In this document: positions 10,771-52,013 of the stretch, in pieces
How positions within the stretch are numbered: the first letter of the stretch is position 1
Layout: every line of letters starts with the position of its first letter
Assembly: GCA_947490345.1 (NCBI GenBank)
Contig: CANLGL010000001.1
Span: 17,399-81,398 of the forward strand
DNA: 64,000 bases
DNA from: Deltaproteobacteria bacterium
GTDB taxonomy: Bacteria; Myxococcota_A; UBA796; SXON01
Direction: 5' to 3'
Made by a program: the position numbers and the translations under genes
The notes under the pieces: generated by a model
Told to the model about the DNA's origin: nothing
The model's database searches: none
What the model saw: only the letters and a program-made list of their open reading frames with translations

Positions 10771-12342
10771 TCACGCAGATTCGATTCCGAGCAGCTTGCC
10801 GAGGATCACGCGATCGCCCTGCAATGCCGTCCGCTGCATGTAGAACGCGAGGCCGCGCTCGCCACCGAGCTCCTCGCCACCACCGGCCCGGCCCGGGCCG
10901 CCATGGATGCAGCCGGGCAAGACCATCCCCGGTGCGATCACCTGATCGGCCACCTTCGACGAGGTCAACATCATCCGCCCGAGCCACGGCGCGCACTCGA
11001 GCATCATCGTGCCGAGCCAGGCGCGGTCGTCGCCGTAGACCGTCGACATCAGGCTGCCCTGGCCCCTCGCGAGCGCTGCGGAGCCGGCTTCGGCGCTGCC
11101 GTCGTAGGGCACCAGCGAGACCGAGGGGCCGAAGACCTCCAGGTCATGAACCGGGCCGGCCGCGGCGCTCGCCAGGCGAATCACGGTCGGCGCCACGAAG
11201 TAGCCCTTGCCTTCCGGGGCGTGCTTCCCATCGATGCGATCGGGCCCGCCGGTCACGACGCGCCCGTGTTCGGCTATCTGGCGGATGCCGCTCAGCACGT
11301 CGCGCAACTGCGAGGCCGTACTCACCGGTCCCATGCCGACCCCGTCCACCAGCGGGTCCCCGACGGTGATGGCGCTGAGCCCCTCGACGACCGACTCCTC
11401 GAACGCGGCGATGAGCGAGTCTGGGACCATCACGCGGCGGATCGCCGTGCACTTCTGGCCCGCCTTCTGGGTCATGTCGGTCACGACGTGGCGAACGGCG
11501 GTGTTCCACAGCTCCGAGCCGACTTCGACATCGGGGCCGAGCACAGCCGCGTTGAGCGAGTCGGCCTCGACGTTGACGCGCACGCCGCGCTCGGCGAAGC
11601 CCGGGGTGTTCCGCAACATCGCGCCGGTGGCGTTGCTGCCGGTGAACGCCAGCGAGTCCTGGGCGCCGAGCCGGGACAACAGGTCGCCGGTCGAGCCGCA
11701 GATGAGCTGGAACGCGCCCTCGGGGACGAGGCCGCTCTCGACCAGCAGCTCCGTCATCCGGTGGGTGAGCTGCGCGGTGGCCGTCGCCGGTTTGGTCACG
11801 ATGGGTGCCCCGGCGAGCCAGGCGACAGCGGCCTTTTCGAAGGTACCCCAGGCCGGGAAGTTGAACGCGTTGATGTGGACGGCGACGCCCTGCCGCGGCA
11901 GGAGCACATGCTGCCCGCCGAAGCGCGGCGCGCGAGTCAATTGTGCCAACTCCCCGTCGAGGAGCCACGGGCGATCGCCGATCCGCGTCGCAAGCACCTC
12001 ACCGAAGGCAGCGTAGGCCCCCAGCGTCCCGATGGCGCCATCCACGTCGAACTTGGCGTCCCCTCGGGTGCTCCCGCCGTTGATCTGGGCGAGGTCCAGA
12101 AGCTCCTCGCGGTGGGCGTGGAACAGCTTCTGCACACCCTTGATCATCGCCGCGCGCGCCGACCACGGCTGTTTCCGAAGCACCGCGCCGGCTTGGCGAG
12201 CGTGGGCGAGCACGGCGCCGTGGTCGATGCCTTCCGCCGAGGTCTCGGCGATCACGGCTTCGGTGGCGGGATTCACGAGCTGTGCGGGCTTGCCCGTGCC
12301 ATCGAACCAGGCACCCGCGACGTAGGACTTCAGGCGCACCAT
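10771..12342 (-). CDS. paaZ: 3,4-dehydroadipyl-CoA semialdehyde dehydrogenase-like protein (PaaZ aldehyde-dehydrogenase domain only, no MaoC hydratase domain)
   Basis: Long collinear matches to the PaaZ N-domain as I remember it: GVAVHINAFNFPAWG, KPATATAQLTH, VEADSLNAAVLG, TQKAGQKCTAIRRVMVP and HGGPGRAGGGEELGG. Confidence 0.85.
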   Translation of the reverse strand: MVRLKSYVAGAWFDGTGKPAQLVNPATEAVIAETSAEGIDHGAVLAHARQAGAVLRKQPWSARAAMIKGVQKLFHAHREELLDLAQINGGSTRGDAKFDVDGAIGTLGAYAAFGEVLATRIGDRPWLLDGELAQLTRAPRFGGQHVLLPRQGVAVHINAFNFPAWGTFEKAAVAWLAGAPIVTKPATATAQLTHRMTELLVESGLVPEGAFQLICGSTGDLLSRLGAQDSLAFTGSNATGAMLRNTPGFAERGVRVNVEADSLNAAVLGPDVEVGSELWNTAVRHVVTDMTQKAGQKCTAIRRVMVPDSLIAAFEESVVEGLSAITVGDPLVDGVGMGPVSTASQLRDVLSGIRQIAEHGRVVTGGPDRIDGKHAPEGKGYFVAPTVIRLASAAAGPVHDLEVFGPSVSLVPYDGSAEAGSAALARGQGSLMSTVYGDDRAWLGTMMLECAPWLGRMMLTSSKVADQVIAPGMVLPGCIHGGPGRAGGGEELGGERGLAFYMQRTALQGDRVILGKLLGIESA

Positions 12343-44132: not shown

Positions 44133-44483
44133 GTGGTCGCCCCCAATTGGGTGTACACTGGCGCCGCGAGCGCGGGGTCGGTGGTGACGCGTCTGGGGCC
44201 TGCGGTGGCTGCCACGACTCCGTGGTCGGCCGTGGTCGCGCTGGCGGCTCGCGTCGACAAGCATGGCGACATGACCTGCAGCGAACTTGCAGACGACCAT
44301 GCTAGCCATAAGAAAATGGAAGCGTTTGCCGACTCCATCAAGGAGACAGACCCAGAGCTGTCGGCCGCGATCCTCGAGCTGAGCCGGGCGGGCCGAAACG
44401 AGGTCGTAAGCCTCGCGTGCGCAAAGGGCTGCACCTGGGCGAAGGCCCTCGACCTGTGCCATGGCTCGGACCGCAACAGCTGA
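44133..44483 (+). CDS. Small hypothetical protein with a C-terminal Cys/His cluster
   Basis: GTG lies 3 nt after the P2 stop. The C-terminal half is MTCSELADDHASHKKMEAFADSIKETDPELSAAILEL...LACAKGCTWAKALDLCHG. An alternative ATG start lies at 44269. Confidence 0.45.
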   Translation: MVAPNWVYTGAASAGSVVTRLGPAVAATTPWSAVVALAARVDKHGDMTCSELADDHASHKKMEAFADSIKETDPELSAAILELSRAGRNEVVSLACAKGCTWAKALDLCHGSDRNS

Positions 44484-45342
44484 ACGCGGGGCCGCTGGCG
44501 CGCGGCGCCCGCCCGCGCGCCAGCGTGGCGTGCGTGCGCTCCTCGGTGGCCTTCTGGTCTCCAGCGGCACGATGCTGTTCGTCGGACGGTGGCGCGAGGA
44601 GCCGCGATCACCCGCTGGCGCCCACGTCTCCGCCTCCGCTGAGCAACCGATTCGCCGCGCAGCACGTCGTGAGCCGCAGGCGGTCACCGCTCCCGACCCC
44701 TCGGCCCGCGCCCCCGAGGCGCCAGCCTCCGGCCCAGACGGCCTGAGGCTGGTGGCATGCCGGTTCGTCGGGGAGCCCGAGGCGACCGGGCAGTTCTATC
44801 GGGAGACTCCTGACGAGAGCCCGCCCGCCGCGGAAGGGGTAGCCATGCTTCACAACGGGACGCTTGGTTTCTACGCGAGTAGCGACGCGGGCGAAGGAAC
44901 GGTGGACTTCCGCGACCGGCTCCGGGCCCGCGTGACCTGGGCGCCGGAGCCAGGTGAGTACGCGCGGCGGTGTACGGTGGGAGAGATCGTGCGCTACGAG
45001 GCGACGCTGCTCCTCAGCGTCCCGGGCGCGCCGGGCAGGGTACGGATACTCACCTCGGAGGGAGAGCGCGTTGTCAGGGGGAGCGGTCCCCACGAGCTTC
45101 GTTTTCCGGTGACCTCGGTCCTGGTACAGGTCGCCACGTGGTCTGAGGGCCGGGTGTGCGCCTCGCCCGAGTTGCCCGTCGAGTTGCAATGGGCGGGCGT
45201 GACCAGCCTTGAGGTCGAGCTACCCGAGGAGCCGGGTTGTCGGGCACCAAACGAAGACGAAGCGCGCTGGGATGAAGACGACGCAGCCGACCTCGAGTGG
45301 GCGTATGCGTTTTTGGACCTCAACCCGCCGGCGGAGGAGTGA
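44461..45342 (+). CDS. Single-pass membrane protein with an extracytoplasmic beta-rich domain (hypothetical)
   Basis: Arg-rich N-terminus and TM segment VRALLGGLLVSSGTMLFVG. Overlaps the preceding ORF by 23 nt. Confidence 0.6.
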   Translation: MARTATAERGAAGARRPPARQRGVRALLGGLLVSSGTMLFVGRWREEPRSPAGAHVSASAEQPIRRAARREPQAVTAPDPSARAPEAPASGPDGLRLVACRFVGEPEATGQFYRETPDESPPAAEGVAMLHNGTLGFYASSDAGEGTVDFRDRLRARVTWAPEPGEYARRCTVGEIVRYEATLLLSVPGAPGRVRILTSEGERVVRGSGPHELRFPVTSVLVQVATWSEGRVCASPELPVELQWAGVTSLEVELPEEPGCRAPNEDEARWDEDDAADLEWAYAFLDLNPPAEE

Positions 45343-45433
45343 CGCGGGCCGGAGACTCGGTGCGGGGGCCACGGCCCCGCCTGGCGGATAGATGGGATGA
45401 GGCGGCCGGTGCTCCACGCGGAGCACATGGACG

Positions 45434-45492
45434 CCGCGGCAGGGGGGAACCGCGAAGCGGTGCCCCCCCTCCCACAAGGAAGCGGTGCCCCC
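45434..45492 (+). repeat. Short REP-like element, copy e2
   Basis: GCCGCGGCAGGGGGGAACCGC-gaa-GCGGTGCCCCCCCTCCCACAAGGAAGCGGTGCCCCC, nearly identical to 42367-42423. Confidence 0.7.
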
Positions 45493-45494
45493 TC

Positions 45495-46403
45495 TCAGAG
45501 AATCGTCTTGCCTAGTGCGCTCATCAACAGCCACACGGCAAGGCGGCCCGTGCGGTTTTCGCTGTCGATGACTGGGTTGAGCTCGACCATCTCGAGCCCG
45601 AGCACCTTCCCAGTGGCGGCCACTTTCTCGCAGATCAGGTGGGACTCGCGCAGGCTGAGCCCGCCTGGCACCGCCGTACCCACGCCCGGTGCGTGTTGGG
45701 GGTCGACGCCGTCGAGGTCGAAAGACAGGTGGATGCCGACCGTGCCGTCGGTGCAGCGGTCGATGGCCTCGCGCACGCAGAGGGCGGTGCCGCGCTCGTC
45801 CAGCTCGCTCATGGTGTAGACACGCAGCCCGACCTCGCGGACAAAAGCGCGCTCGCCGGCGTCGACGTCTCGGGCGCCGACCACACAGACGTTGCGGCCG
45901 TCGAGCGCCGGCCGGTCTCCGGCGAGCGCGACCAGCTCAGGAGGCCCGTGACCCAAGAGCACGGCAAGCGGCATGCCGTGGATGTTGCCGGTCGGGGACG
46001 AGTCGGGGGTGTTCACGTCGGTGTGCGCGTCGACCCACAACACGCCGATTCGCTTGCCGCGCTTCCGCCAGTAGCGCGCCATCCCGCTGATGGTGCCGAT
46101 CGCCACCGAGTGGTCGCCCCCCAGCACCACCGGCAGGTGCCCGGCTTCGAGTGCGGCTTCCACCCGATCGGCCAGCTGGGTACACACGCGGGTGATCTCG
46201 GTGAGATAGCGCGCGTGCTCGTCGCCAGACTCGATCATCTCCTGGGTGCGCACGCCGAGCGCGAATGTCTCGGCAACCTCGATTCCAAGCGACTGTACCC
46301 CCGGCTTGAGCCCGGCCAGGTGGATGGCGGAGGGACCCATGTCGACCCCGCGTCGGCCGGCGCCGAGGTCCATGTGCACGTTGCCGATGACGATCGAGCG
46401 CAT
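45495..46403 (-). CDS. rocF: Arginase
   Basis: Collinear with the RocF-type arginase sequence as I remember it: MDLGAGRRGVDMGPSAI, VVLGGDHSVAIGT, WVDAHTDVNTP, GNIHGMPLAV, SFDLDGVDP and GLSLRESH. Confidence 0.9.
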   Translation of the reverse strand: MRSIVIGNVHMDLGAGRRGVDMGPSAIHLAGLKPGVQSLGIEVAETFALGVRTQEMIESGDEHARYLTEITRVCTQLADRVEAALEAGHLPVVLGGDHSVAIGTISGMARYWRKRGKRIGVLWVDAHTDVNTPDSSPTGNIHGMPLAVLLGHGPPELVALAGDRPALDGRNVCVVGARDVDAGERAFVREVGLRVYTMSELDERGTALCVREAIDRCTDGTVGIHLSFDLDGVDPQHAPGVGTAVPGGLSLRESHLICEKVAATGKVLGLEMVELNPVIDSENRTGRLAVWLLMSALGKTIL

Positions 46404-46415
46404 AGCCGAGCCTAA

Positions 46416-47987
46416 CTACTCGACGTGGACGTCGGCGGCGCCTAGCTCGCCCATGGTGGAGTCCTCGTCCCACTCGATGCCGGGCACCAGGTGGGCGGCG
46501 TCGAAGGCGCGCGTCTCCACGATTCCGGCCCGGGGCGCAGTCACGACCCGCATCAGCTCGATGCCGCCCGCGATTCCCGTGCCCGCCCGGCCCTGCGGGG
46601 CCGTCGGCAAGCGGAGGCTGGCCCCGACGGTGCTGCGATTCACGTTGAGTGCGCCGGTACGCAGGCCCTCTCTCAGCTCGGCCACAGCAGCCCCATCGGG
46701 CTTTGCAAACACACTCGTAACCGGACGATACATTGCCCGGTTGTGCAAGTCGATCGCCTCGTCCGGACCGTTGACTCGGTAAACGAGCAACAGAGGGCCC
46801 GGTGGCTCCTCGTTGAGGAACGGCAGCCCGCCCCGCCAGCGCACATCGTAGATGCCCGGCGCGCAATAGTGCCCGCGCCGACCGGAGAGCTCCATCGCGT
46901 CCCCGTCGCAGAGGGCAACGTGGCCCTTGGCCGTAAGCGTCCGACAGTACTTACGAAATCGCGTACGCAGGCTGTCGCTGATGACCGGACCCATGAAGAC
47001 GTCGTCGTCAAAGCCGTAGCCGACCCGCAGGCGCTGAGCGCGGCGGACCAGGTCGGGCACGATCTCGTCCCACGCGGCGGTGTGCACGAAAACGCGCGCC
47101 GTGGACGTCGCCCGTTGGCCGGCGGTCAGGAACGCGCCCACGAGCAACTCGTAGACGGTGCGCTCCCGGGGCGCGTCCTCGTGCACATAGGCGAGGCCCT
47201 TGCCGCCAGTCTGGAACAGCGTCGGTAGTTCGGGGCGTTCGGCGAGGGCGCGGCGCAGCTCGCGAGCGGTTTCGTAGCTGCCGGTGAACAACAGCGCGTC
47301 GATGCCTGGGTGGTTGACGAGGCGCTGTCCGACCGCCGCTCCGGGGCCCTGGACGAGGTTGAACACCCCGCGCGGGAGCTTCACCCGGTCCCACAACTCC
47401 GCCACCGTCTGCCCCACGACCGGGCTGTACTTCGATGGCTTGTACACCACGCCGTTGCCGCCGAGGATTGCCGCCGACGTGGTGAGCACTGCGTTGGTGA
47501 GCGTGAGCACCGAGGGGTTCACGATGGCCACGACACCGCGGGCGACGTAGTCGGTCCGCCCGGCGATGTCCTCCATCACGCGCGGCGCGACCAGGCCCAC
47601 GCCGTCGTCGAGGAGCAGATCCAAGGCGCGAACGCTGGCGGCCACCTCCTGCCGAGCTTCCCACAACGGCTTCCCCGCCTCCCGTACGACGAGCATCGCC
47701 ACCGGCTCTGCCAGCTCCTGGAGCTGATCTCGGAAGCGCTGCACCGCCGCGGCGCGCTCCATCAGGCCGGTACGCCGCCAGCTCCGAGCGCCCCGACCCG
47801 CGGCCTCCACGGCGTCGTCGACCGAGCGGAGCGAAAATGCAAAACGGCCGAGTACGTCGCGCCGGTCGCCGGGGTTGGTCGCGTTGACGTAGCCATCCAC
47901 GATCTCAGGCTTCAGGAATGATCCCCAGACGTAGTCCCCCCGGCGGAGCACACGATCGGGGAGGCCGTTGGCGGGCGTGGGCGGCAC
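46416..47987 (-). CDS. AstD-like aldehyde dehydrogenase superfamily protein lacking the catalytic Cys and Glu (probable pseudo-enzyme)
   Basis: EAGKPLWEARQEV, GVFNLVQGPG and LLFTGS align with AstD. The E-x-G-G motif reads LFQTGGKG. The GQxC motif reads TAGQRATSTAR. Confidence 0.8.
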   Translation of the reverse strand: MPPTPANGLPDRVLRRGDYVWGSFLKPEIVDGYVNATNPGDRRDVLGRFAFSLRSVDDAVEAAGRGARSWRRTGLMERAAAVQRFRDQLQELAEPVAMLVVREAGKPLWEARQEVAASVRALDLLLDDGVGLVAPRVMEDIAGRTDYVARGVVAIVNPSVLTLTNAVLTTSAAILGGNGVVYKPSKYSPVVGQTVAELWDRVKLPRGVFNLVQGPGAAVGQRLVNHPGIDALLFTGSYETARELRRALAERPELPTLFQTGGKGLAYVHEDAPRERTVYELLVGAFLTAGQRATSTARVFVHTAAWDEIVPDLVRRAQRLRVGYGFDDDVFMGPVISDSLRTRFRKYCRTLTAKGHVALCDGDAMELSGRRGHYCAPGIYDVRWRGGLPFLNEEPPGPLLLVYRVNGPDEAIDLHNRAMYRPVTSVFAKPDGAAVAELREGLRTGALNVNRSTVGASLRLPTAPQGRAGTGIAGGIELMRVVTAPRAGIVETRAFDAAHLVPGIEWDEDSTMGELGAADVHVE

Positions 47988-48008
47988 GGCCGCTACTATA
48001 GCGCGCGC

Positions 48009-48752
48009 TCAGCCGGGAACGCCCAGCCGGGCGCACGCTGCGTCGTGGAGCGGGGTGGCCAGCGCGTGACTCCGGGCCGTTGCCTGCAGCCATCCATCGC
48101 GCCACCGCCACTCCTTGACCCCCGCCCGCCACGAGCCGACCGCGAGGCTGTAGGCGCATAGGCGCGCCACCGTGGCGTCGACGGCCAGTGCCGAGCCGAG
48201 GCCGGCGGCACAGACGGGTACCAGCTCTGCGACCAAGGCGCCCACGTCGTCGCGGCGGGCGACGCTCGCCAAGACCGTTTCCCGGTGGAGGTCACCGAGC
48301 ACGCCGAACACCGAGAGCCACAAGAGCTTCGCGGCCACCTCGTCGGGGAAGACCTCGGGTCCCGAAAGTACCCGCGCCGGCAGTCCTGCGCGGCACAGGA
48401 GATACGCCAGACCGGGAGCGTGGCGCCCGACCAGGACCGACTCCGCGCCCGCCTGCGGGGTGGCGTCGATGCTGGGCACCGCCAGCCAGAGCTGGCCTTG
48501 CGTGCAGTCGCCCAGCCCACGCTCCCTGAGCCAGGGAAAAAGCGCGCCGTTCTGAAGGAAGACGAGGTCGTCGGGGCGGGGGCAGACATCGATGACCGCG
48601 GCGACGTCGTCGGCGCGGGTGCACACCACGATGGGCCCGGCGCCGTCCTCGATCGGCTCGCCGCGACCCAGTAGCCGGGCGTCGACGTCCTGATCGGCCG
48701 CCAGGCGCGCCAGGGCGCGACCAATCCGACCGGGTCCGACGATGGTCAGCAT
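48009..48752 (-). CDS. NAD(P)-binding Rossmann protein, ketopantoate-reductase (ApbA/PanE)-like
   Basis: N-terminal MLTIVGPGRIGRALA (GxGxxG). The size and C-terminal helical domain fit the family. Confidence 0.5.
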   Translation of the reverse strand: MLTIVGPGRIGRALARLAADQDVDARLLGRGEPIEDGAGPIVVCTRADDVAAVIDVCPRPDDLVFLQNGALFPWLRERGLGDCTQGQLWLAVPSIDATPQAGAESVLVGRHAPGLAYLLCRAGLPARVLSGPEVFPDEVAAKLLWLSVFGVLGDLHRETVLASVARRDDVGALVAELVPVCAAGLGSALAVDATVARLCAYSLAVGSWRAGVKEWRWRDGWLQATARSHALATPLHDAACARLGVPG

Positions 48753-48775
48753 CCGTCCGCCCTATCCCCGTCGGT

Positions 48776-49264
48776 TCACCCCAGCTTGCCGCCCAACGCC
48801 TGCCAAGCGGCCACGCCGCCCTCGAGGCTCGTGGCGTTGAACAGGCCCTTGGAACGCAAGAGCCTCGCCGCGGTCACACTCCGCATGCCGTGTGCGCAAT
48901 AGCAAACGATTTCATTGCATTTTTCCACCTCGCGCCACCGGGCCTCCAGCTGGCCGAGAGGGATCACGCGCGCGCCGGCGATGATGCCGTGGGTGGTCTC
49001 GTGGGGTTCACGAACGTCGAGCAGCACCACAGGCTCGCCGGCCTCGACCCGCTCCTTGATCTCCTGGGCGCCCGCTTCGAGGTTGGCAAGGGCATCCGCG
49101 TCCGCAACGGGCCCTTCCTCACCGGCGGTGACCGCTACCGGACCGCGACCGGCAGGGGCGGGGGGGCGAGGAGGTGTCGGGGTTGAGGCGGGCGAGACGG
49201 CGGCCGGTGGGGCGCCGCCGATCCTGGACACCACGCTCTTGGCGAACGATCGCAGCAGTCCCAT
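48776..49264 (-). CDS. Rhodanese-domain protein with a Pro-rich N-terminal extension
   Basis: ATG at 49264. Active-site loop IVCYCAHGMRS, with LLDVREPHE upstream. Confidence 0.8.
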   Translation of the reverse strand: MGLLRSFAKSVVSRIGGAPPAAVSPASTPTPPRPPAPAGRGPVAVTAGEEGPVADADALANLEAGAQEIKERVEAGEPVVLLDVREPHETTHGIIAGARVIPLGQLEARWREVEKCNEIVCYCAHGMRSVTAARLLRSKGLFNATSLEGGVAAWQALGGKLG

Positions 49265-49314
49265 CGGGCCTCCTCCTCGCCGCGGCATGCGGCAAGGAGG
49301 GCTATCATGCAACA

Positions 49315-49454
49315 GGGGAAGGGGCCTGCGGCACCTTCCCCTACCGCCGTCTACCCTCCGGCCTCCAAGCTGCGCTTTCCGGCCCACGGCAGCGGGCGGG
49401 TTGAATAACCCGCCCGCCGGGCGACTCTCCCCATCCCGCCCAGCCGCAGAGCGG
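49315..49454 (-). repeat. Composite REP-like structured intergenic element, copy b
   Basis: GGGGAAGG...CCTTCCCC hairpin, core CTACCGCCGTCTACCCTCCGGCCTCCAAGCTGCGCTTTCCGGCC, hairpin GCGGGCGGGTT-gaat-AACCCGCCCGC and tail CTCCCCATCCCGCCCAGCCGCAGAGCGG. Confidence 0.75.
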
Positions 49455-49551
49455 CCTACAGGGCCTGCCGTGTGCCGCTCGCCAGTTTCATGGGGCTGGC
49501 GTCGCGAGACGGCGCGCCCCCGCGGGCGGAACTGCGATAGGCGCTTCCGCC

Positions 49552-50082
49552 GTGAAGCTCTCTCAGCTCCTCACCCTGGCCAGCGCCCTGTCCGCGCTCC
49601 GGCTCGTGCTCGCAGGAGTCCTGCCGCTGTTTCCGCCTGAGTTTTGGGTAGCGGTGTACGCCGTCGCGATCCTGACTGACGTCCTGGACGGGCCGGTCGC
49701 CCGGCGGACCGGGGTCGCCTGTCCGGCGGGAGCTACCCTGGACGCCTGGGCCGACAAGGCGCTGCACGTCAACACCGCGTGGGCGCTGGTGCTCGGCGAC
49801 GTGGTCCCGTCGTGGTGGCTGCTCCTTTGGTTCATCCGGGAGATCATCCAACTGCCGATGGTCTTCATCTTCGCCCACCGGTGGCGGACCGGCGTCGGCA
49901 TGCCGGCAACCCGACCGCTCGGTCAGGCCACATCGATCTCGCTGGCGGCGACGATCGCGCTCGCCCTCGTCGGGATTCCGTCATTGTGGGCCACTGTGCT
50001 CGTCGGTGCGCTCGGCCTTGCTGCGGGAATGGATTACGCGCGGCTACACTTCTCCACACTCCGCCTGGTCGAGGTCCCATGA
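49552..50082 (+). CDS. CDP-alcohol phosphatidyltransferase family protein (small, 176 aa)
   Basis: GTG start. Family motif D-x2-DG-x2-AR...G-x3-D-x3-D in TDVLDGPVARRTGVACPAGATLDAWADK. Hydrophobic helices. Confidence 0.8.
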   Translation: MKLSQLLTLASALSALRLVLAGVLPLFPPEFWVAVYAVAILTDVLDGPVARRTGVACPAGATLDAWADKALHVNTAWALVLGDVVPSWWLLLWFIREIIQLPMVFIFAHRWRTGVGMPATRPLGQATSISLAATIALALVGIPSLWATVLVGALGLAAGMDYARLHFSTLRLVEVP

Positions 50083-52013
50083 AACTCCTTCCCCTTGTGC
50101 TGCTGCTCGGTTGCACCGGCGCCGCCGTCGTGGACGACACCACCGACCACTTCCCGGACGACGAGGACGCCGACGGGTACACTGCCGAAGAGGGGGATTG
50201 CGACGACAACGATCGTGCGGTGAACCCCGGCGCCGCGGAGGTCTGGTACGACGGCTTCGATCAGAACTGTGACGGCGCCGACGACGATGACCAGGATGGC
50301 GATGGCAGCAAGCTAAGTCGCGACTGTGATGACACGGAGCCGGAAGTGCGTCCTGGCGCCGACGAACTGTGTGACGGCATCGACAACGATTGCGATGACC
50401 AGATCGATGACAACCCGGTTGACGGCGTGCCGGCCTATGGCGATAGCGACCTCGATGGCTGGGCGGCAGACAATGCCAACGAGATCCAGGTCTGCGACGC
50501 GGCGGCGCCGGGCCTGGCGACCCAGACCGGCGACTGCGATGATCGTGACGCCGACGTCGCTCCGGACGCTCTCGAGCTGTGCAACGGTGAAGACGACGAC
50601 TGCGACGACGCCATCGACGAGGACGCCGTGGATCCCGACCAGTGGTGGATCGACGCCGATGGCGATGGGTTTGGTGTCGGGACCGAGTGGGTAGTCGGCT
50701 GTACCCAGCCGTTGGGCTACGCATCCTCGTCCGAGGATTGTGACGACGCCCGCGCGGATGCCAACCCCGACGCAATCGAGCTGTGCGACCTCGTCGACAA
50801 CAACTGCGATGGCACCGTGGACAACGACGCTTTCGATGCCACCACCGTCTACACCGACGCCGACCTGGACGGCTTCGGCGTCGATGGCACCGAGGCGACG
50901 GCGTGCGCGTTCAGCGGCGCAGCGGTGGGCGGGGACTGTGACGACGCCAACGCCTCGACGTACCCCGCCGCGGCCGAGCTCTGTGACGAGCTCGACAATG
51001 ACTGCGACACCGAGGTCGACGAGGATGCCTTTCCGGTCGATTATTACGTCGATGGCGATGGGGACGGCTTCGGCGCGGGCTCCTTGGTGGGGACCGATTG
51101 CATCATCCCCGCCGGTCACGCCACCAACGATGCCGACTGCGACGACGGGGACGCCGCCGTCTCGCCCGTGGCGATCGAGATGTGCGACGGCATCGACAAT
51201 GACTGTGTCGGTGACCCCGACGACGGCGCCGTGGACGCATCCACCTGGTACCTCGACGAAGATGCGGACGGCTTCGGACTCGACGATGACAGCGTCAGCG
51301 GCTGTGCCGCGGCGGGCGACCACAGCGCGATCGTGGGGGGTGACTGTGACGACTCGGACGACGCGGCTTACCCGGGAGCGGCGGAGCTCGACGATCTCCT
51401 CGACCAGGACTGCGATGACCTGGCGGACGAGGACTTCGTGGTTGCCGGCGACCTGGTCATCAGCGAGATCGCTCGGCAGACCTGGATGGGCGGTGCCTCG
51501 ACCGACACCGGCGGGCAGTGGTTTGAGGTCTACAATGCCTCGGCTCGCGACGTGGTACTCTCGAACTGGGTGATCGCGCGAACCAGCGCGGTCGGCACCG
51601 ACAGCTTCCTCGTCGAGGACACGGCGCCGACGCTGGCCGCAGGCGAACTTTTCGTCTTCTGCGCCAGCGACGTCTTCACCATCGACAACGACGCCAACAG
51701 CCTGTTGGCTTGCGACTACGTCTGGACGGATTCCGGGTACCCCGACACCTACGAGGGCACCTACCGGGACAACACCTTCCACCTCCAGCGCGACGCCGAT
51801 GGGCTCTCCCTCGCCCTCGACGGGCGCACGGTCGACGATGTGACCTGGGACGCGACCTGGCCCGCGGGCGCCACCCAGTCCATGACCCTGGACGGGGCGG
51901 CCCTGGACGCCACCAGCAACGACGACTCCCTCAACTGGGACATGGAGTTCGACTACGACTGGTGGAACGACGGCGCGAGCAGCCCTGAATACGGGACGCC
52001 CGGCACGTTCTGA
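50079..52013 (+). CDS. Lipoprotein with MopE-like Cys/Asp repeats and a C-terminal lamin-tail (LTD) domain
   Basis: ATG at 50079 overlaps the preceding stop (ATGA). Lipobox in MKLLPLVLLLGC. Repeats CDGIDNDCDDQIDD, CNGEDDDCDDAIDE, CDLVDNNCDGTVDN and CDELDNDCDTEVDE. The C-terminal LVISEIARQ...QWFEVYNASARDVVLSNWVIA is LTD-like. Confidence 0.8.
   Translation: MKLLPLVLLLGCTGAAVVDDTTDHFPDDEDADGYTAEEGDCDDNDRAVNPGAAEVWYDGFDQNCDGADDDDQDGDGSKLSRDCDDTEPEVRPGADELCDGIDNDCDDQIDDNPVDGVPAYGDSDLDGWAADNANEIQVCDAAAPGLATQTGDCDDRDADVAPDALELCNGEDDDCDDAIDEDAVDPDQWWIDADGDGFGVGTEWVVGCTQPLGYASSSEDCDDARADANPDAIELCDLVDNNCDGTVDNDAFDATTVYTDADLDGFGVDGTEATACAFSGAAVGGDCDDANASTYPAAAELCDELDNDCDTEVDEDAFPVDYYVDGDGDGFGAGSLVGTDCIIPAGHATNDADCDDGDAAVSPVAIEMCDGIDNDCVGDPDDGAVDASTWYLDEDADGFGLDDDSVSGCAAAGDHSAIVGGDCDDSDDAAYPGAAELDDLLDQDCDDLADEDFVVAGDLVISEIARQTWMGGASTDTGGQWFEVYNASARDVVLSNWVIARTSAVGTDSFLVEDTAPTLAAGELFVFCASDVFTIDNDANSLLACDYVWTDSGYPDTYEGTYRDNTFHLQRDADGLSLALDGRTVDDVTWDATWPAGATQSMTLDGAALDATSNDDSLNWDMEFDYDWWNDGASSPEYGTPGTF

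Follow-up and report, generated by a model that had tools for sequence, protein, structure and literature searches.

A gene for an AstD-like aldehyde dehydrogenase-fold protein lacking the catalytic residues is maintained, once per genome, in the core genome of an uncultured Myxococcota order

The window analysed here, a stretch of 64,000 nucleotides, contains an apparent four-gene operon on its minus strand, the third gene of which (46416..47987) encodes a protein of 523 amino acids with an aldehyde dehydrogenase (ALDH) fold. This gene starts with GTG. The operon opens with a single-domain rhodanese (48776..49387, minus strand), recognized by its Pfam match. The rhodanese open reading frame as listed carries a low-complexity N-terminal stretch, and since orthologs align only from about residue 39, its true start is probably an internal Met. 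A short KPR/ApbA-like Rossmann protein of 247 amino acids follows (48009..48752, minus strand). A sequence-only reading of this DNA had called this gene ketopantoate-reductase-like, which agrees with its ESM Atlas features and predicted structure (feature and structure neighbours carry ApbA/ApbA_C/F420_oxidored), but neither Pfam nor PDB yielded a sequence match. The last gene is an arginase of the rocF type (45495..46403, minus strand, 302 amino acids), an identity proposed before and confirmed here by a TIGR01229 score of 279 bits, above the equivalog cut-off of 227.6. The tight spacing reported in the same reading is correct: 21 nt lie between the stop codon of the KPR-like gene and the ALDH-like start, and 12 nt between the ALDH-like stop codon and the ATG of the arginase. 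A scan of positions 44300-50000 for promoters and terminators returned none, with no terminator-like site between the four genes. A TATAGT box within 47988-48008 ends 7 nt before the GTG of the ALDH-like gene and could serve as an internal promoter from which a leaderless transcript starts. Other genomes instead have TATAAT boxes 35-70 nt upstream of the ALDH-like gene, together with a Shine-Dalgarno leader.

Both sequence and fold place the window protein in the ALDH superfamily. The Pfam model Aldedh (PF00171) matches the whole domain (residues 36-482) with 276 bits against a gathering cut-off of 23. Both AstD models (TIGR03240 / NF006992) are the top NCBIfam models, and the AstD chains 5u0l and 4kna rank first in a phmmer search of PDB sequences, in line with the earlier description of a 523-residue AstD-like protein; the peptides quoted at that time (EAGKPLWEARQEV, GVFNLVQGPG, LLFTGS, PGPLLLVYRV, LFQTGGKG and AGQRATSTAR) are all located in the protein. 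The AstD model scores, however, are 219.4 versus a cut-off of 579.3 and 224.1 versus a cut-off of 514. In addition, the rest of the arginine succinyltransferase pathway is not in evidence, as AstA and AstB (PF04958, PF04996) gave no match in the 92%-complete genome while the positive controls, E. coli and Caulobacter, did match. The protein is thus not an AstD by score, by catalytic residues or by pathway context, although it descends from AstD-like enzymes. Public databases label family members either as 'N-succinylglutamate 5-semialdehyde dehydrogenase' or as 'aldehyde dehydrogenase family protein'. The same genome has nine other ALDH-family genes, of which the one inspected retains the Asn, Glu and Cys motifs. 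This second ALDH-family gene in the window (10771-12342, minus strand) likewise encodes 523 amino acids and is canonical (NAFNFP, NVEADSLN, AGQKCTA), and therefore serves as an internal control for the normality of the other ALDHs of this genome.

The catalytic apparatus of the ALDH-like protein is lost. In the phmmer alignments to the solved AstD structures 5u0l and 4kna, LFQTGGKG falls under ALEMGGNN and AGQRATSTAR under AGQRCTCARR. The column assignment of Glu268 and Cys302 made from sequence alone thus holds: the general base has become Gln259 and the nucleophile Ala293. The same alignment reveals a third loss that had gone unnoticed, as the Asn of P-Y-N-F-P (Asn169) is replaced by Val160 in NPSVLT. 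Consequently, the window protein has none of the three residues of a catalytically competent ALDH, i.e., Cys302 (GQxC), Glu268 (ELGGK) and Asn169 (PWNFP).

The Glu/Cys pair is missing in all of the approximately 170 family members examined. The best 120 database homologs (54-94% identity, 505-548 amino acids) all lack it, as do class-level relatives at 37-42% identity, which have N, H or F at position 268 and R, F, H or Y at position 302. Among 121 close homologs, position 268 is Q in 99 and otherwise H, L or M, whereas position 302 is H in 103 and otherwise A, P, S or Y. Of the two replacement residues of the window protein, Gln is the prevailing one at position 268 (82% of the family), whereas Ala at position 302 is a minority state next to His (87%). 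The commonest family state is N169, Q268, C269 and H302, with C, T, S or A at position 269; Asn169 is retained in about 73% of the wider family, unlike in the window protein. The window's genus (at least 66% identity) has V or S at position 169 and A, S or P at position 302. His302 is thus common yet dispensable, as it is lost in a lineage that is still strongly constrained. No Cys column reaches 85% conservation among the approximately 170 members, and Cys348, Cys360 and Cys375 of the window protein are unconserved, which leaves no substitute nucleophile from elsewhere in the sequence. The original statement that these losses are incompatible with thiol-based ALDH chemistry stands, since the residue columns hold and the alternative Cys that would have overturned it was looked for across the family and is not conserved.

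Despite these losses, the gene is maintained and not decaying, as had been proposed. For the closest ortholog (94% identity) dN/dS is 0.056 at a dS of 0.68 (Nei-Gojobori), a value quoted for this pair only because more distant orthologs are near saturation (dS 0.85-1.2). One copy without internal stops is present in each of 41 genomes of the order (41/41; 24 genera, 7 families), which as related genomes are non-independent samples. In a sample of 301 genomes from the phylum, the gene occurs in 43 of 44 genomes of the order and, at 38-40% identity, in four further genomes of the same class; it was not found in the genomes of other classes in that sample. The same substitutions recur in independent metagenome-assembled genomes (MAGs) from different lakes. 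In this uncultured Myxococcota order the ALDH-like gene thus belongs to the core genome, is present once per genome and is under strong purifying selection. Loss of catalytic residues, purifying selection and phylogenetic retention, the hallmarks of a pseudoenzyme, coincide here, and residues lost from a gene kept under such selection point to a role other than textbook aldehyde oxidation. The label 'maintained pseudo-enzyme' in the sequence-only reading accordingly holds for maintenance and for the lost residues (alignment, dN/dS, 41/41), while the word pseudo-enzyme itself is what we infer. According to their record titles, related loci come from environmental MAGs, freshwater ones among them, that carry the label Myxococcota or 'Deltaproteobacteria'. 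Several MAG contigs (L038, L043, L050, L078, L097 and several 'uncultured Enterobacterales' loci) encode orthologs that are 53-81% identical, in several cases in the same gene order, under GenBank titles naming Klebsiella pneumoniae, Bifidobacterium breve or Enterobacterales; these labels look wrong.

The predicted structure is that of a complete ALDH. The AlphaFold2 model, built from a 90-sequence alignment, has a mean pLDDT of 93.3 and a pTM of 0.90 and contains all ALDH secondary-structure elements, including the oligomerization strands, and the protein has the three-domain ALDH fold (Rossmann cofactor domain, catalytic domain, oligomerization strands). Foldseek aligns it with the AstD structures 4kna, 3ju8 and 5u0l at a TM-score of 0.87 by query and 0.93-0.94 by target, and with many solved ALDHs at 0.83-0.87 by query and 0.85-0.94 by target.

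Eight of ten classical ALDH motifs are recognizable in the family, and their conservation is uneven around the cofactor. On the adenosine side, K183 (the Lys192 equivalent) and G236 are each conserved in 99% and S237 in 81% of the approximately 170 members, and E394 (the Glu399 equivalent) is conserved in 93%. The window protein has all four of these predicted NAD(P)+-binding motif residues and keeps both FTGS and the G-x-G-x-x-x-G loop, with Lys at position 186 and Pro at position 396. The equivalent of Glu195 is Lys186 in 100% of the family, whereas among 82 canonical relatives this column is E in 58 and K in none. Likewise, the Phe401 equivalent (position 396) is Pro in 97% of the family and always Phe in the 82 canonical relatives. 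In the former substrate channel, conservation reaches 98-100% at R292, R298, R451 and R459, and a conserved LRLP...GR segment takes the place of the usual PFGG loop. Glu195 of ALDHs disfavours the 2'-phosphate of NADP; against this general background, the invariant Lys186 suggests a preference for NADP(H) or another 2'-phosphorylated adenosine ligand. The adenosine side thus appears to be kept, while the nicotinamide or catalytic side seems remodeled (Phe401 to Pro) or free to vary (positions 169, 268 and 302). The picture that emerges from these residue patterns is a family with a putative adenine-nucleotide site and an anion-binding channel that would have given up ALDH-type hydride transfer.

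In phylogenetic terms, clustering at 50% identity places the clade without the Glu/Cys pair in about 15 clusters, and canonical N-E-C proteins appear from about 40% identity down. In a FastTree tree the Cys-less clade is monophyletic and lies beside AstD-like clades that lack Asn169 and/or Glu268. Most of these neighbours keep the Cys, in contrast to the present clade, which lacks it except for one outlying representative. One sister-clade type is M-H-C (PAMLP / LxxHxGAKN / GQRCTA, with Met169, His268 and a retained Cys), another is x-M/L-C. Sister-clade proteins with non-canonical active sites include P0141, P0202, P0220, P0231, P0234, P0239 and P0265, among others, and P0220, P0234 and P0265 carry an N-terminal extension of about 330 amino acids without Pfam match. 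A further protein, P0123 (847 amino acids, from one metagenome contig), has a Ser/Thr kinase domain N-terminal to a Cys-less family member of 46% identity. A search with P0123 found no second kinase-fused protein, and this fusion, the only one to hint at a sensor role, was dropped as support for it, being a singleton that may be a gene-call artefact.

The genomic context of the ALDH-like gene differs across the order. Only members of the window's own family repeat the arrangement rhodanese, KPR-like, ALDH-like, arginase; arginase lies downstream in 14 of 68 loci, all in that family, whereas in 31 of the 68 the ALDH-like gene stands head-to-head with a gene for a PALP plus CBS-domain protein (cystathionine beta-synthase, CBS), neighbour counts that are approximate because the genes of related loci were called with a crude ORF and GC3 filter. 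The head-to-head pairing is the commonest arrangement in the other families of the order, and it extends to class-level relatives at 37% and 42% identity. Downstream of CBS come a Cys_Met_Meta_PP gene (cystathionine gamma-lyase, CGL), often also a GT4 glycosyltransferase gene, and a gene for a PlsB-like acyltransferase. Measured from the start of the CBS ORF, the conserved GDY motif, which in most loci sits about 10 residues into the ALDH-like protein, is mostly 90-200 nt away. K-mer and dyad counts across the 31 divergent intergenic regions revealed no convincing common site for a shared operator; only -10-like TATAAT boxes and the word CCGTGGTAGG were seen there, each in a minority of sequences. 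Synteny by itself can be enough to preserve a divergent gene pair.

The arginase operon put forward in the sequence-only reading is therefore real in the window but a family-level novelty, the linkage being absent from most of the order. Since arginase is confined to the window's family and CBS/CGL is spread more widely, the CBS/CGL operon is the wider and probably the older neighbour and the arginase association derived. An interaction with arginase can therefore not be taken for granted as the explanation of the whole family. The CBS/CGL pair of the window's genome is located on contig 30, where it adjoins a MopE-repeat gene (L136 6065-8683, plus strand; five repeats) that is divergent from the CBS/CGL operon. 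Its paralog in the window (49779-52013, plus strand) encodes a large protein with seven MopE-type putative metal-binding repeats and a lamin-tail domain, and is divergent from the rhodanese operon. These MopE paralogs may mark the rearrangement that parted the ALDH-like gene from CBS.

How, then, is a conserved ALDH without its catalytic residues to be understood? The absence of three catalytic residues could by itself signal a recently inactivated gene heading to loss, or an assembly or sequencing artefact. The conservation data refute this explanation, to which we assign next to no weight: the frame is intact in all 41 genomes, dN/dS is 0.056, independent MAGs from different lakes share the substitutions and the AlphaFold2 model is confident. 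It is also very improbable that the protein is still an aldehyde dehydrogenase of the arginase pathway, of AstD or P5C-dehydrogenase-like type, with a nucleophile and base recruited from elsewhere. Such an enzyme would fit the full ALDH fold, the best family match with AstD and the operon shared with arginase in the window, but no Cys is conserved anywhere in the family, the AstD scores are far under the cut-offs (224 versus 514; 219 versus 579), AstA and AstB were not found in the 92%-complete genome and the arginase linkage is missing from most of the order. Moreover, among the nine other ALDH-family genes of the genome the inspected one is canonical. Precedents in the superfamily, such as omega-crystallin and the C-terminal ALDH-like domain of PutA, bring to mind a purely structural or bulk protein, crystallin-like or serving as an oligomerization module, that binds no ligand. 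We regard this as improbable, given that conservation is among the highest at the cofactor-site residues and the channel arginines, which a pure scaffold could do without.

A stronger contender is a neo-functionalized, thiol-independent enzyme on the ALDH scaffold that would bind NAD(P)(H) and an anionic substrate, for example for direct hydride transfer to a carbonyl or imine or for a non-redox reaction, with His302 and the channel arginines as working residues. The enzyme-like conservation (dN/dS 0.056), the retained cofactor-binding motifs and the position as a single-copy core gene adjoining metabolic operons are all in its favour, and R292, R298, R451 and R459 (98-100%) together with H at position 302 (87%) could mark a new active site instead of a binding site. 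On the other hand, the very positions where chemistry would be expected vary among orthologs, i.e., 302 (H, A, S, P, Y, R, F), 268 (Q, H, L, M, N, A), 269 (C, T, S, A) and 169 (N, V, T, S, P, I). The window's genus lacks both His302 and Asn169 yet experiences the same constraint, and Pro stands in place of Phe401, the residue that packs on the nicotinamide ring. We therefore see this enzyme as possible, though rather unlikely. A narrower version, in which a thiol-independent NADP(H) enzyme with an arginine-rich channel acts on a metabolite of the transsulfuration or sulfur network, is more doubtful; it is suggested by the head-to-head CBS/CGL partner and by the rhodanese in the window's operon. 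A related reading is a sensor of the NADP(H) state that regulates transsulfuration or sulfur pathways. If true, a thiol-independent enzyme would represent a catalytic mechanism not known in the ALDH superfamily.

On balance, and with modest confidence, we read the protein as a non-dehydrogenase that is maintained for binding a nucleotide, an anionic metabolite or both without turnover, because the adenosine side is kept, the nicotinamide side is remodeled and several channel arginines are invariant. In this model Lys186 would confer a preference for a 2'-phosphate, such as that of NADP(H) or of a related phospho-adenosine ligand, and the protein would work as a sensor, regulator or scaffold subunit. 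Across most of the order the gene shares a short divergent promoter region with the CBS/CGL operon, whereas in the window's family it has moved into the operon with rhodanese, the KPR-like gene and arginase. The partner process is therefore more probably sulfur amino-acid or redox metabolism, and less probably the breakdown of arginine as such.

The family described here is a free-standing bacterial ALDH family in which the catalytic apparatus was lost once, early in a Myxococcota order, while the gene has stayed in the core genome as a single copy since then. Apart from a domain of PutA, the known ALDH-fold proteins without catalytic activity are mainly those of animals (ALDH16A1, lens crystallins). 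Searches of the literature turned up nothing specific on Cys-less ALDHs of bacteria or on the present family in Myxococcota. As a consequence of the database labels, metabolic reconstructions of these abundant freshwater MAGs would wrongly credit the organisms with a step of the AST pathway or with semialdehyde oxidation. The retained adenosine side, altered nicotinamide side and new invariant basic residues make the family a tractable case for studying how an oxidoreductase scaffold turns into a sensor or a new enzyme.

Compared to known systems, the family is most similar to AstD (PDB 4kna, 3ju8, 5u0l), with about 30% identity, TM-scores of 0.87-0.94 and common blocks that comprise GKPLWEAR.EV, LPxGVxNLVQG, the GQR box and the C-terminal PG motif. 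It differs from AstD in the replacement of Cys302, Glu268 and Asn169, in the changes of Glu195 to Lys, of Phe401 to Pro and of the PFGG loop to LRLP...GR, in scores of less than half the family cut-offs and in a genome where AstA and AstB were not found. Omega-crystallin and the C-terminal ALDH-like domain of PutA are other non-catalytic cases of the ALDH fold, without specific relationship to the present family. The architecture of ALDH16A1 differs, as it includes an additional C-terminal domain. Mammalian ALDH16A1 is described as a non-catalytic member of the ALDH superfamily that is thought to work via protein-protein interactions (PMC12405490; reviews PMC8160307, PMC10650815). The present family resembles ALDH16A1 as a non-catalytic ALDH-superfamily protein with no specific relationship to it. 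Unlike the eukaryotic ALDH16A1, it is bacterial, has the standard length of an ALDH and is derived from AstD-like enzymes.
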